A stretch of 64,000 nucleotides of DNA from Escherichia coli (GTDB lineage Bacteria; Pseudomonadota; Gammaproteobacteria; Enterobacterales; Enterobacteriaceae), in assembly GCF_024700885.2 (NCBI RefSeq), contig NZ_CP117016.1; one strand, 5' to 3'. Shown one piece after another: positions 19,074 through 24,273 of the stretch; within the stretch, counting starts at the first letter, position 1; each line of letters begins with the position of its first letter. The position numbers and the translations under genes were made by a program. A model generated the notes under the pieces. That model had not been told where the DNA came from. It searched no databases and was given only the letters and a program-made list of their open reading frames with translations.

Positions 19074-19340
19074 TTATCCTATTGCACATTCCGGTGCACT
19101 GGATATAACCTTACACCCACACAGACATTTACATCCATCAATCACAACAGCTCTTCCATCAGATATCCATTCAGGAGAGCCCTCCACAATAGGATTGGTA
19201 CCATGTCCGGAAACAGGGCAACTAACCATATCTCCAACAAGAGCTACTTTTTTACCATCGACAATCATGGTTGAAGATGCAGAAATAACTTTACCACCAT
19301 GTGTGGTATTATCACCAAGCAATACAAAACCTTTAGACAT
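19074..19340 (-). CDS. PAAR-domain spike-tip protein
   Basis: 88-aa Gly/Cys-rich protein (MSKGFVLLGD...VSCPVSGHGTNPIVEGSP...) typical of PAAR proteins. Confidence 0.75.
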   Translation of the reverse strand: MSKGFVLLGDNTTHGGKVISASSTMIVDGKKVALVGDMVSCPVSGHGTNPIVEGSPEWISDGRAVVIDGCKCLCGCKVISSAPECAIG

Positions 19341-19371
19341 AATACTCTCAAAAATAAATTTTCACTTTGAG

Positions 19372-20068: not shown

Positions 20069-21751
20069 TTAAACACCAGACATCATAACTTTAGTATTTT
20101 TTACTGCGTTATCATTCAATCGCTGCTGATCATCCATGTACCATACAGAACGAATCCAGCGATCATTTGGTTTATTCGGAAAAACGAACGCCTTATTACC
20201 TTTAGGACCAAAGCGATGGATAAAAATCTCTCCCGTTGTAGGATCCACCCATAAATTACCATCAGACTCAATATTCCAGTTAGCGGAACAATGGGTGTAT
20301 TTTCCGATAATATACAACTCTTCCTCAGTAAAAGCCTGAGGCTCTTGCCCCAAACGTACCGCTTTTCCCTGAGCAATGGCTTTGTCAGCAAGAAATATTA
20401 GTTCAGATGGAAGTTGTAACTCAGTATTTGTTTGTCGAATTGGTTCAAACAATACCCCTGCTTCCTGAGCAGCATCCAGCATCACACGCAGGCAAACATT
20501 AGCCCAGTCATTAGGTACTGCCATACGCTCAAAAAATACTGCGGCTCCCACCTGCTTTTGTATCACACCAGCCCGACGTTGATTGCTGTTGTTCACACCT
20601 ATGGAACGAATTTTGGTGGTTAGTTTTCCATGAGGCAAAATATGTTTTAAGGCTGGCAGAGTCATCAACATTTTTCTGACTTGCTCTGCTTTACGGTATA
20701 CTCGCGTATCCATTTCTCTGGTATCGTCACTGACAATTTCAAATTCCGGGCAACTCAGAAACAGACTTTCATTTTCCTGCAGAGGTGAACCTACCGGATT
20801 GTAACCACCTCCAATATCTGAATGCGCCCCCGGTAAAGCCAGTTCGGGCCACATACCTTTAATACTGTTCAGGCTGAAATTATATCGGTATTCATTCATT
20901 GCAGTAATCTGGAAAACTTTCTTCGCGACTGAAGGACGCAACTCCAGCTTTACTCCCGGGTTGCTACGTCCATTAATATCGAAGAAATTACTGATTCCAC
21001 CAATAGCTGCGACAGTATCAAAAAGCCCCAGAAAACGTACTTCACCAGAAGGTTTACCATCATAAAAATCGCCTCTGAGCCCTTTAGCAATAGCTCTGGC
21101 TATAGCAGGATCCTGTTCCATAACCCGATTGGCAAAGTGCCTTGCCGCCGCTGCTCCCCGGCTAAAACCAAAAACATCAAACTGGATTTTTGCGATACAA
21201 AAATCAGGACTTAAATTGAACCCCATAAATTCTGATAACGCCTGGGTGATTCGTTCCATTGCCTCGTCGGTTTTCGTCACCACACCTTCAAATATATCCA
21301 GAATACTGGTGCCTAATCCCATGCCTATGACTGAATCTGCTTCACCAGCCGCAGTCCCTATCCCGGAAATGTAAGTCTTAATTTGAGCTGACGTCTGGTC
21401 TTTTTTAAGTACCTGATCTGGATGATAGAGTATATTAAGCCAGTGAATATTGGAATAATATCCACGATAACTGCCATTCGAGATACTGTTCTTGTTAATT
21501 TCTTTAAGAAAGTCCTCACAGCTTTGTGCATCTTTTTGATTTACCCCCTGTCTGGCTGCACTACACTCATTAAATTTCATCAGGCGAGATGCTGTATTCT
21601 CCCGATTGTTTCCGGTACCATCGAAAAATATGCCAATAGTTAAAGTCACACCCCGCGCCGGTTTTTTCTTTGCAACAACAACTTTCCAGTCATTATGAAT
21701 ACTGGTTTTATGGGTGGCATCTGTTACGTCATATCCCTGATATTTTGTCAT
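20069..21751 (-). CDS. tle1: T6SS phospholipase effector, Tle1 family (DUF2235)
   Basis: 560 aa; GxSxG lipase motif in DVFGFSRGAAAARHF; start overlaps vgrG stop (translational coupling). Confidence 0.7.
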   Translation of the reverse strand: MTKYQGYDVTDATHKTSIHNDWKVVVAKKKPARGVTLTIGIFFDGTGNNRENTASRLMKFNECSAARQGVNQKDAQSCEDFLKEINKNSISNGSYRGYYSNIHWLNILYHPDQVLKKDQTSAQIKTYISGIGTAAGEADSVIGMGLGTSILDIFEGVVTKTDEAMERITQALSEFMGFNLSPDFCIAKIQFDVFGFSRGAAAARHFANRVMEQDPAIARAIAKGLRGDFYDGKPSGEVRFLGLFDTVAAIGGISNFFDINGRSNPGVKLELRPSVAKKVFQITAMNEYRYNFSLNSIKGMWPELALPGAHSDIGGGYNPVGSPLQENESLFLSCPEFEIVSDDTREMDTRVYRKAEQVRKMLMTLPALKHILPHGKLTTKIRSIGVNNSNQRRAGVIQKQVGAAVFFERMAVPNDWANVCLRVMLDAAQEAGVLFEPIRQTNTELQLPSELIFLADKAIAQGKAVRLGQEPQAFTEEELYIIGKYTHCSANWNIESDGNLWVDPTTGEIFIHRFGPKGNKAFVFPNKPNDRWIRSVWYMDDQQRLNDNAVKNTKVMMSGV

Positions 21752-24273
21752 TCTGTTTCTCCATGAATTTTTACCTTCCCAAACTCAACTTTTACTACTG
21801 ACGGAATGGAGGTGTTGACTGGCGCTGTTTTACCATTTTCATCGGTGATCCCCTGTAGAATATCACCTTCAGCCGTTGTTAATCGATAAGGCGTCGAAGG
21901 TTGCGGCACTCCCGCTTCATCGGTAAGAATAAAACCGCCCCCAAACCCTCGCGGCATTTCAACAGACGCAATATCAAGACTTGTTGGTCCCATCTTCTGC
22001 ATATTCGTGCTTTTTAACAGAATCTGTCCCGGGCATCCCAGCTCAATATTTCCACCGCTTAGTTTGATATAAGCTCCACCACATGCCAGTATCAGTTCCT
22101 GATTAGCAGAAACAGTCACTTTGCCCTCAGAACTTTGAATATCAAGATTCTGTTGGGAACTCATTGACAAATCGTCACTTTGAGCCTGAATATTTACCCG
22201 CCCTTTTGCTGCTAACAGTTGCATCCCCTGGTTTCTGCTCAACAGGCTAACAGCACCTTCTGCTACAACTGTAAATGACTGCCCGGCAGTAATATCAGTG
22301 TTATCTCCCGACATTATGCCCACGCTTTCACTACCTGAAGCAATTCGTAACGCCCGCGCACTAACCATGCCAATCCCATCAGGAGCATGCAACAGCATTC
22401 CCGGCGCAGTGAGATCTGTTAGTGATGCATTCAACCGTTGCTGACAACTTATATCTCCCTGAGTAGCATTTGCAGCAGTTGCGGCCTTCGCCATACTTCG
22501 GGCCAGAGATAATGCCTGCTCCAATTGGCGGATAGCTTCATCCATATCCAGCATCTTTCCTTGTGCCTGAGGCTGCATATCTGCACTGATAAATATTCCT
22601 TTTCCTCCCCGGATACTTATCCAGTCATCAGTCCTCAGCTCAGCGCCTTCTCCCCTGAGTTCCCGGGAGGCATCAACGTTATGGCCAAGATTAAGTTGTG
22701 TCTTACCGCCATACTCGGTACTGAGCTTGATATGCTCCTCACCGCGTTTGTCCTCCATCCGCAACTTGTTATTTGCCGGCGTACGGATAACATTGCGCGT
22801 ACCGTTCTTATCGGTAACGTGATCAACATGACGTGAATCATGCAGGGCATGCGCTATATAGGGACGATCCGGATCACCTTCCTCAAAAGCAATGGCCACT
22901 TCCGTTCCCTGAATCAGCGGAAAATGAAAACCATAAGCATCACCACTGTAGGGTTTGGCCAGACGTACCGGCATACTTTCCTGTCCCGGATTTTTATCAT
23001 CACGGTCAGCATCAAATTTCACCCGGTACATGCCTGAAGCATCCTGCCAGGCGTAGATATCCCCTTCTTTTGCACTGGTCACACGGGCCGTCATGGTCCC
23101 GGTGATTTTCGGACGAGTAAGTAACGGTGGTCGCCAGCAGACAATCTCGCTGTAAGGAACAGCACTCAGCATCACCTGTAGCGCAGATTTCCGGCTACCG
23201 GTGAACAGAAGCTGCGTGAGCAGAACCGGCTCCTGTAACGGTGCAGGCAACACTGGTGGAGTACTGTCAGTAATAGTCAGCACCTGTGCCGGTAACAGAC
23301 TGGCATCGGTGCTTTTACCTGTGATACGTGTTTGCTCAGCCAGAAAACGCTCGTGATCGAGCCGGGCCCAGAAGTTAGCCGTCTCCGGCGCAGGGTCAAT
23401 TTTATCGCCCCTTTCTGTATGGCGTGGCCGGTAATGATAAACCTCGCCATAACTGGTGTCGTAACCTTCTCCACGGGTCATGTCCGCCGGTACGGACATC
23501 AGTATGTTCTGGGCCTCGCGGTGGTTATAGTCGTTCGTGATAACACGGCTTTCCACCACCCGGTGCTCCACATTCAATGCCCATACTGAGTCTGTGCCAC
23601 TGTCACTCATACCGGACGGGCTGTTAACGGGCAGTGTTTTATCAAATATCAACGCCGCCTGGACGTCACCGAAGTGGATCACCTCTGTCTGCGCATCCGG
23701 GTGCAACGTAAAGAAGTAAAAAATGCCCACTTCTGCCAGCAGGCGCTGGATAAATCTCAGATCGCTTTCCTGATACTGGTTAATCTGTTCGCGCTTCGGA
23801 TATGTCCTTTTGAGGCTGAACTCATACTCCCAGCCTTTCAGCCCGTGTTCCGTCAGGATTTGCTCCACCACCTCAGGCACTGATTTATTAACGAAAAAAC
23901 GGTGTGTACGGAACTGTTTATCCAGCAGGGAAATGAAAGGTTTAAGTGTGATCCGGTATTGTGCCTGGTCCTCAGAGCCAGAAATACGTCTGAAATCAGT
24001 AATAACACCGTGCACTTTTTTCTGTTCAGTCAGGCTTTCCAGTAATCCGGTTCCCATTATCAGGGTTGCGGATTTACGCAGGAACCAGGCAGCATCAGGA
24101 TACCTGTCCGTACTGGTAAAAATGATGTCATACCGGTAAATCTTACTTATGCCTTCAGTTCCGCTGAAATCTTCAACATCCAGCGATGACGGGCAGGAAG
24201 GTATATCCAGTCTGTAGCGGTTCAGGGTTCCCACCCCGGATAAAACATTTTGCAGGGAGTCAGTGAGATTCAT
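21748..24273 (-). CDS. vgrG: T6SS spike protein VgrG with C-terminal extension
   Basis: 841 aa; N-terminus MNLTDSLQNVLSGVGTLNRYRLDIP... and gp27/gp5-like repeats; extension beyond core VgrG length. Confidence 0.85.
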   Translation of the reverse strand: MNLTDSLQNVLSGVGTLNRYRLDIPSCPSSLDVEDFSGTEGISKIYRYDIIFTSTDRYPDAAWFLRKSATLIMGTGLLESLTEQKKVHGVITDFRRISGSEDQAQYRITLKPFISLLDKQFRTHRFFVNKSVPEVVEQILTEHGLKGWEYEFSLKRTYPKREQINQYQESDLRFIQRLLAEVGIFYFFTLHPDAQTEVIHFGDVQAALIFDKTLPVNSPSGMSDSGTDSVWALNVEHRVVESRVITNDYNHREAQNILMSVPADMTRGEGYDTSYGEVYHYRPRHTERGDKIDPAPETANFWARLDHERFLAEQTRITGKSTDASLLPAQVLTITDSTPPVLPAPLQEPVLLTQLLFTGSRKSALQVMLSAVPYSEIVCWRPPLLTRPKITGTMTARVTSAKEGDIYAWQDASGMYRVKFDADRDDKNPGQESMPVRLAKPYSGDAYGFHFPLIQGTEVAIAFEEGDPDRPYIAHALHDSRHVDHVTDKNGTRNVIRTPANNKLRMEDKRGEEHIKLSTEYGGKTQLNLGHNVDASRELRGEGAELRTDDWISIRGGKGIFISADMQPQAQGKMLDMDEAIRQLEQALSLARSMAKAATAANATQGDISCQQRLNASLTDLTAPGMLLHAPDGIGMVSARALRIASGSESVGIMSGDNTDITAGQSFTVVAEGAVSLLSRNQGMQLLAAKGRVNIQAQSDDLSMSSQQNLDIQSSEGKVTVSANQELILACGGAYIKLSGGNIELGCPGQILLKSTNMQKMGPTSLDIASVEMPRGFGGGFILTDEAGVPQPSTPYRLTTAEGDILQGITDENGKTAPVNTSIPSVVKVEFGKVKIHGETE

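Follow-up and report, generated by a model that had tools for sequence, protein, structure and literature searches.

Does the tightly packed block of genes at positions 19074-24273 of a 64,000-nucleotide stretch of Escherichia coli DNA (contig NZ_CP117016.1; the whole stretch is hereafter called the window) encode a type VI secretion system (T6SS) spike together with a lipase toxin that rides on it, and is this weapon still usable in the strain? A first-pass annotation, made from the letters alone, had read the block as an extended VgrG followed by a DUF2235 lipase, a lipoprotein and a PAAR protein. The region is almost certainly the vgrG1-tle1-tli1-PAAR segment of the Sci-1 (T6SS-1) gene cluster of enteroaggregative E. 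coli (EAEC), and we count nothing against this identity. The module has already been solved at near-atomic level by cryo-electron microscopy, and its identity as such adds no new knowledge. What the analysis adds lies at the level of the strain: a private frameshift in tssK, a tli1 locus reduced to the EC042_4536 paralogue, and a neighbouring pair of genes for a putative metallopeptidase and a lipoprotein.

Identity and layout of the module

Four minus-strand open reading frames (ORFs) are packed within 19074-24273, and in the ORF list their order and outer ends match the limits of the first-pass annotation exactly. The gene vgrG1 (21748-24273; orthologue of EC042_4533) encodes the spike, a protein of 841 amino acids (aa) with a gp27/gp5 core, a C-terminal DUF2345 domain and a transthyretin-like (TTR) extension carrying Tle1. 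It is followed by tle1 (20069-21751; EC042_4534), whose 560-aa product is the phospholipase A1/A2 (PLA1/PLA2) cargo toxin, by a single tli1 of the EC042_4536 type (19372-20049), whose 225-aa product is the DUF2931 lipoprotein immunity protein, and by the PAAR gene (19074-19340; EC042_4537), which encodes an 88-aa zinc-binding tip capping the VgrG trimer. The vgrG stop and the tle1 start overlap by 4 nt (GAATGA), with GGAG located 9 nt upstream. The overlap fits the translational coupling of tle1 to vgrG that had been proposed at first pass, and which we would expect from this arrangement. The remaining spacers are short: 19 nt between tle1 and tli1, and 31 nt between tli1 and the PAAR gene.

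The domain content supports each of these assignments; all Pfam matches counted here lie above the curated cut-offs. VgrG matches Phage_GPD (PF05954, 179 bits), Phage_base_V (PF04717), T6SS_Vgr (PF13296) and DUF2345 (residues 616-763), as well as the NCBIfam models TIGR01646 and TIGR03361; these matches give it the gp27-like, gp5 OB and beta-helix core. Residues 764-841 have no Pfam match, and the TTR domain goes undetected by Pfam; we assign it because PDB 6SJL contains an identical VgrG, whose TTR-Tle1 contact is described. The lipase scores 60.2 bits (E=2.6e-16; cut-off 27) with PF09994 (T6SS_Tle1-like_cat, formerly DUF2235), and GFSRG at residues 195-199 is the sole GxSxG in the protein. 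With this domain, the GxSxG motif and Ser-Asp-His residues, a vgrG neighbour and an adjacent envelope-targeted immunity gene, the protein belongs to the Tle1 family of T6SS lipase effectors, a grouping that reportedly follows the classification of Russell et al. 2013. The residues S197, D245 and H310 are all present, in agreement with the published catalytic triad (bioRxiv 10.1101/2024.03.05.583533).

The tli1 product matches PF11153 (DUF2931) at 87.8 bits and carries a lipobox, LLTG-C19, with Asn at position +2, as read from the sequence. A search for a solved structure of Tli1 found none. The PAAR protein matches PF05488 (PAAR_motif) at 84 bits and retains the zinc ligands H14, C41, H46 and C74; by domain and ligands it is a class 1, stand-alone tip protein. 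It scores 31.8 bits against the NCBIfam equivalog NF033420, below the cut-off of 124, and is therefore not a member of that subfamily. The DUF2235 and DUF2931 searches suggested at first pass thus both return matches, and the lipase, lipoprotein and PAAR calls hold.

Comparison of translations reveals zero amino-acid differences from E. coli 042 in VgrG, Tle1, PAAR and two neighbouring proteins of 382 and 188 aa. Tle1 is identical to PDB 6SJL chain D at 560 of 560 positions, and VgrG matches chain A of the same entry over residues 1-841 (1907.8 bits); these are the only two chains of the module that match it. The RefSeq names are equally specific: 'T6SS effector phospholipase Tle1-EAEC' and 'T6SS immunity phospholipase A1-binding lipoprotein Tli1-EAEC'. 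At the nucleotide level the 5.2-kb module is 100% identical to that of E. coli MLI114, which was isolated from human stool in Mali, and ~99.5% identical to the enteroaggregative reference strains 042 and 55989. The tle1 and tli1 genes are carried by 42 of 5426 complete E. coli genomes.

Published work on mechanism enters this account through PMC10715212, PMC9860674, PMC6730261, PMC7245790 and bioRxiv 10.1101/2024.03.05.583533. Within these, Tle1-EAEC is described as having PLA1 and weaker PLA2 activity that depends on Ser197, and both phospholipase activity and T6SS-dependent delivery are reported for the identical protein (PMC9860674, PMC6730261). The Ser-to-Ala change in GFSRG, named at first pass as a way to refute the reading, is also on record there: S197A abolishes the phospholipase activity of the identical Tle1 (bioRxiv 10.1101/2024.03.05.583533, citing Flaugnatti 2016).

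The surrounding genes make up the rest of Sci-1: tssB, C, K, L, tagL, hcp and clpV on one side of the module, and tssM, A, F, G, J and E on the other. The first-pass annotation had described the module as richer in AT than this core, and the composition bears this out. The fraction of guanine plus cytosine (GC) is 0.427 in tle1, 0.428 in tli1 and 0.412 in the PAAR gene, and within vgrG it falls from 0.508 (aa 1-573) to 0.471 (aa 574-841), compared with 0.551 in tssM, 0.582 in clpV and 0.510 in the whole window. Markedly low GC (0.35-0.42) is also seen at both ends of the window, at 1001-3000 and 61001-63000, outside the T6SS cluster. We looked for a tRNA insertion site in the window and found none. 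The first-pass annotation, made without tools, had correctly identified a VgrG-cargo lipase module from the raw sequence, including its catalytic motif and exact gene boundaries.

Copy number and tail types of the immunity gene

Strain 042 carries a tandem duplication in this part of the module. The repeated unit of 821 bp comprises the final ~49 nt of tle1 followed by the 19-nt spacer and tli1, and yields a proximal copy, EC042_4535, and a distal copy, EC042_4536. The lone tli1 of the window is identical to the distal copy (0 differences). The two copies of 042 are 94% identical to each other, and all 13 differences between them fall within aa 201-219, where the tail reads SDFSYGYDEDIKEFIRDKT in EC042_4535 (S-type) and HPDGYVYYGDTPDFIKGKI in EC042_4536 and the window (H-type). 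The 3' end of tli1 that covers this dimorphic tail occupies 19372-19461 of the window.

Among the 42 genomes, tli1 is present in one copy in 8, in two copies in 30 and in three copies in 4; an H tail occurs in 40 of them and an S tail in 34. Arrays differ in how their tail types are ordered—S then H in 042, but H, H, S in E200086. We considered whether a single-copy locus always keeps the 'distal' tail through deletion of a repeat, and rejected this on account of the variable array order and the existence of single-copy strains with an S tail. Seven genomes with H-type tli1 alone keep an intact tle1, including STEC O22:H8 strain 154, FHI_NMBU_11 and JNEC-KY174. Because these H-only genomes retain the toxin gene, we infer that H-type Tli1 would be a sufficient immunity factor, and that the single EC042_4536-type copy would likewise suffice in the window.

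The toxin gene is variable as well. Across E. coli, its alleles have a mosaic structure and are dimorphic in two patches of Tle1, aa 107-125 (window 21377-21433) and aa 436-455 (window 20387-20446); the two assort independently, which suggests recombination within tle1. At the first of them, 33 of the 42 genomes have the a-type and 9 the b-type. Such paired dimorphism could mean that the H and S tails are specificity alleles matched to two Tle1 alleles, in which case the lone H copy would protect only against the strain's own a-type Tle1. The sharpness of the tail dimorphism (13 of 19 residues differ), the likewise dimorphic patch at aa 107-125 and the first seven single-copy strains, in all of which the tail is H where Tle1 is a-type and S where it is b-type, all favor a code of this kind. 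Across the 42 genomes, however, the co-variation fails and we rejected it. Two genomes with b-type Tle1, 04-00955 and VG38-53E1, have H-type tails only, and the feature annotation of both names intact tle1 and tli1. Fisher's exact test on the genomes with a single tail type gives p ~0.13 (computed by hand), tails follow no fixed order in the arrays, and S-type Tli1 neutralises a-type Tle1 experimentally (PMC7245790). No genome among the 42 combines a-type Tle1 with S-only tails. We regard a specificity code as very improbable, and proceed with the reading that one H-type copy would be enough.

Expression, delivery and the tssK frameshift

An ops element with the exact consensus GGCGGTAGCGTG lies on the minus strand at 28048-28059, in the spacer between hcp and clpV, upstream of the module and in the same direction of transcription; 0.22 such matches are expected by chance. 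It is the published ops1 of the EAEC sci1 operon, at which RfaH sustains downstream transcription (bioRxiv 10.1101/2025.02.08.637259). With 9 promoter-like sites where 12.1 are expected, the module shows no enrichment of them, and it contains no intergenic terminator-like site: every terminator-like match is within coding sequence. Both results fit one long operon, and on their account we rejected internal promoters or terminators separating the module from it. The module genes would then be co-transcribed within the long RfaH/ops1-dependent sci1 operon.

Others have worked out the mechanism experimentally on identical proteins. Three Tle1 molecules attach to the VgrG1 trimer along its sides. 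The N-terminal strand of Tle1 completes the C-terminal TTR fold of VgrG, with more contacts on the beta-helix (needle) and the base, and binding to VgrG holds the lipase inactive. One zinc-bound PAAR protein caps the tip of VgrG and is required for assembly of the baseplate and the sheath. Upon contraction of the sheath, the loaded spike is fired into a neighbouring Gram-negative cell, where Tle1 breaks down membrane phospholipids from the periplasmic side. Tli1 shields the producer and its kin; this lipoprotein of the outer membrane is described as forming a 1:1 complex with Tle1 at nanomolar affinity, which leaves the lipase without activity. The literature also presents PAAR as an essential core tip protein of Sci-1, with baseplate localisation, sheath assembly and killing all requiring EC042_4537 (PMC10715212). 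The PAAR gene is therefore present in the module, as annotated at first pass, but it is a core component rather than one specific to Tle1.

The direction of the attack deserves consideration, since Tle1 is not harmless to eukaryotic cells. Purified Tle1-EAEC lysed ~50% of RAW264.7 macrophages in 16 h, an effect blocked by Tli1 (PMC9860674), and the target of Tle1 has been listed as 'Prokaryotic/Eukaryotic' (PMC6730261). The module could on this basis be directed mainly against host cells, with Tle1 as a trans-kingdom phospholipase. The macrophage assay, however, used added recombinant protein rather than T6SS delivery, and published competition assays credit the antibacterial activity of Sci-1 to Tle1 (PMC10715212, PMC9860674, PMC7245790, PMC6730261). 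A dedicated periplasm-facing lipoprotein immunity gene makes sense only for attack between bacteria. A primary role against the host is thus unlikely, and antibacterial delivery of Tle1 is the role we retain.

Whether this particular strain can fire the spike is a separate question. TssK is an essential subunit of the T6SS baseplate. In the window, tssK (minus strand) is interrupted at 32062-32067: one extra A at 32066 turns AAC CTT GAT into AAC CAT TGA, so that TssK stops after 113 aa, against 445 aa in E. coli 042 by alignment to the 042 gene. The gene is split into two ORFs, 32062-32403 and 31065-32084. The Prokaryotic Genome Annotation Pipeline (PGAP) marks tssK as 'frameshifted' in the identical genome of MLI114, and the insertion is private to it, occurring in 1 of 38 genomes that carry this tssK. 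The window itself is identical to the RefSeq sequence of MLI114 (NZ_CP117013.1) except for a 1-base difference in length in a C run near 42659-42666, which suggests that both represent one genome but differ in assembly version or in polishing state. This homopolymer mismatch shows that the assemblies carry uncertainty at the level of single indels, and the tssK insertion could therefore be an artefact. The effector module is intact, as are all the remaining T6SS genes, and any inactivation would therefore be very recent. Either the insertion is an error of assembly, or T6SS-1 was inactivated naturally and very recently; delivery may be dead in the strain.

Three points bear on whether the module functions in this genome as it does in the model. 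The +1 insertion in tssK truncates an essential baseplate protein. Immunity and inhibition of Tle1 were demonstrated with EC042_4535 (PMC7245790), and the tli1 allele of the window is not the assayed one, differing from it by the 13 residues in aa 201-219. The mechanism is second-hand, being drawn from the summaries of Flaugnatti 2016 and 2020 in later open-access papers; the experiments were performed by others, on identical proteins. The first-pass claim of VgrG-dependent delivery of Tle1 with Tli1 immunity consequently stands as far as VgrG and Tle1 are concerned, whose identical counterparts have been characterised, but needs qualification for the paralogue of tli1 and the frameshift in tssK.

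The frameshift also lends itself to a different reading, in which T6SS-1 is inactivated, Tle1 is made but remains undelivered, and selection acts only on the protection that Tli1 affords against Tle1-armed relatives. Beyond the early stop, the PGAP flag and the private status of the insertion, this reading draws on the experimental evolution of EAEC, where tssK, tssM and tssF readily acquire loss-of-function mutations, the typical route to T6SS loss (bioRxiv 10.1101/2025.02.08.637259). The related E. coli STEC2018-553 provides a precedent for lost toxin and kept immunity: its tle1 is frameshifted while its single tli1 is intact. Against it stand the possibility of a sequencing or assembly error, signalled by the C-run mismatch, and the fact that the remaining T6SS genes and the whole effector module are not only intact but identical to 042. 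We consider this reading a serious contender that nevertheless falls somewhat short of probable. If the insertion is real, the spike cannot be fired and Tli1 alone would be of use to the strain; the private frameshift may only just have disabled the weapon, with immunity retained. VgrG-dependent delivery of Tle1 into neighbouring bacteria, with Tli1 as the immunity protein, is still the reading of the module that we prefer.

Flanking genes and known relatives

Two further minus-strand genes lie between clpV and vgrG. The distal one (24796-25362; EC042_4531) encodes a 188-aa protein with invariant HEMxHVWQ and MEQQAQII motifs, for which there is no Pfam or NCBIfam assignment even at E<=10. It is a stand-alone homologue of the C-terminal metallopeptidase domain of Pseudomonas aeruginosa VgrG2b and conserves the HExxH motif. 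The second gene (24260-24802; EC042_4532) encodes a 180-aa lipoprotein with the lipobox LLTG-C23, and its 3' end overlaps the start of vgrG by 14 nt. This lipoprotein matches NF045617, 'putative T6SS immunity periplasmic lipoprotein' (82.9 bits), and PF24295 (DUF7480), and differs from its 042 counterpart by one residue, C112R; a search for a solved structure found none. It is the predicted PA0261-like immunity partner of the metallopeptidase.

Wood et al. 2019 (PMC6899460) showed for P. aeruginosa that the C-terminal domain of VgrG2b is toxic in the periplasm and that PA0261 neutralises it. In Enterobacteriaceae, the same study notes, the domain occurs as a putative cargo effector and the PA0261 homologues are predicted lipoproteins. 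Given this homology, the upstream pair is a new member of a known family and not a new kind, and the 188-aa protein is predicted to be a second periplasm-acting effector. Our literature search found no experiment on either member of the pair in EAEC; EC042_4531 is mentioned only as a landmark for a reporter insertion. It is conceivable, though rather doubtful, that EC042_4531 and EC042_4532 form a second functional effector-immunity pair of T6SS-1, perhaps with delivery by the VgrG1/PAAR spike that also carries Tle1. Published statements that credit Sci-1 killing to Tle1 argue that the pair contributes little under laboratory conditions. If the pair does function in this way, the much-studied Sci-1 of EAEC would not be a single-toxin weapon. 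The functional effector island is likely to span 19074-25362: the limits drawn at first pass are exact for the four genes, but the island probably extends upstream beyond them.

On the other side of the module, a minus-strand gene at 17922-19070 (EC042_4538; GC 0.45) separates PAAR from tssM. A gap of 3 nt divides its start from the PAAR stop, and at its other end it shares 8 nt with the start of tssM; its product is a 382-aa membrane-anchored protein with predicted N-terminal membrane segments. The protein has no Pfam or NCBIfam match even at E<=10; in one RefSeq record it bears the label 'KPHS_23130 family T6SS system protein'. As 57 E. coli genomes carry it, against 42 with tle1 and tli1, it is not strictly tied to the Tle1 cargo. 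Farther away, at ~2740-4107, VasL-domain, ShlB/POTRA and ImpA_N fragments with PGAP pseudogene flags lie downstream of the T6SS accessory genes, as they do in 042. We considered decay of this tagA-like gene as window-specific erosion of the T6SS and rejected it, because the same ImpA_N/POTRA/VasL fragments are annotated in 042.

The closest known system is Sci-1 of EAEC 042 and 17-2 (PDB 6SJL, 6SK0 and 6SKI), with which the window shares the sequences of VgrG, Tle1 and PAAR, the gene order and the overlaps. The flanks are also the same as in 042: clpV and EC042_4531/4532 on one side, EC042_4538 and tssM on the other. The differences from 042 are the single EC042_4536-type tli1 in place of a tandem pair, the frameshifted tssK and the C112R change in the lipoprotein. 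Comparable modules occupy the same vgrG-tle-tli-paar slot in the T6SS-1 clusters of other pathogenic E. coli: VgrG-Tle3-Tli3-PAAR in adherent-invasive E. coli (AIEC) LF82 and uropathogenic E. coli CFT073, and Tle4 modules in avian pathogenic E. coli (PMC9860674, PMC6730261). These likewise combine a lipase-binding DUF2345/TTR extension of VgrG with an outer-membrane lipoprotein for immunity (PMC9860674, PMC6730261), but their lipase is Tle3 or Tle4 and not the DUF2235 enzyme Tle1. Immunity does not cross between them: Tle3-AIEC is not inhibited by Tli1-EAEC (PMC9860674).

The founding members of the family, Tle1 of P. aeruginosa (PDB 4O5P) and Burkholderia thailandensis, have in common with the window the DUF2235 domain, the GxSxG serine, periplasmic action and a cognate immunity protein. 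The relationship is distant—33 bits over ~65 residues between the Tle1 of the window and 4O5P—and the founding members are larger, with other accessory domains. They are also reported as PLA2 enzymes, whereas Tle1-EAEC is mainly a PLA1 (PMC9860674). For the upstream pair the nearest relative is P. aeruginosa VgrG2b/PA0261 (PDB 6H56), which differs in that the metallopeptidase domain is fused to VgrG there and is a free-standing protein of 188 aa here, and in that the putative immunity protein here is a lipoprotein.

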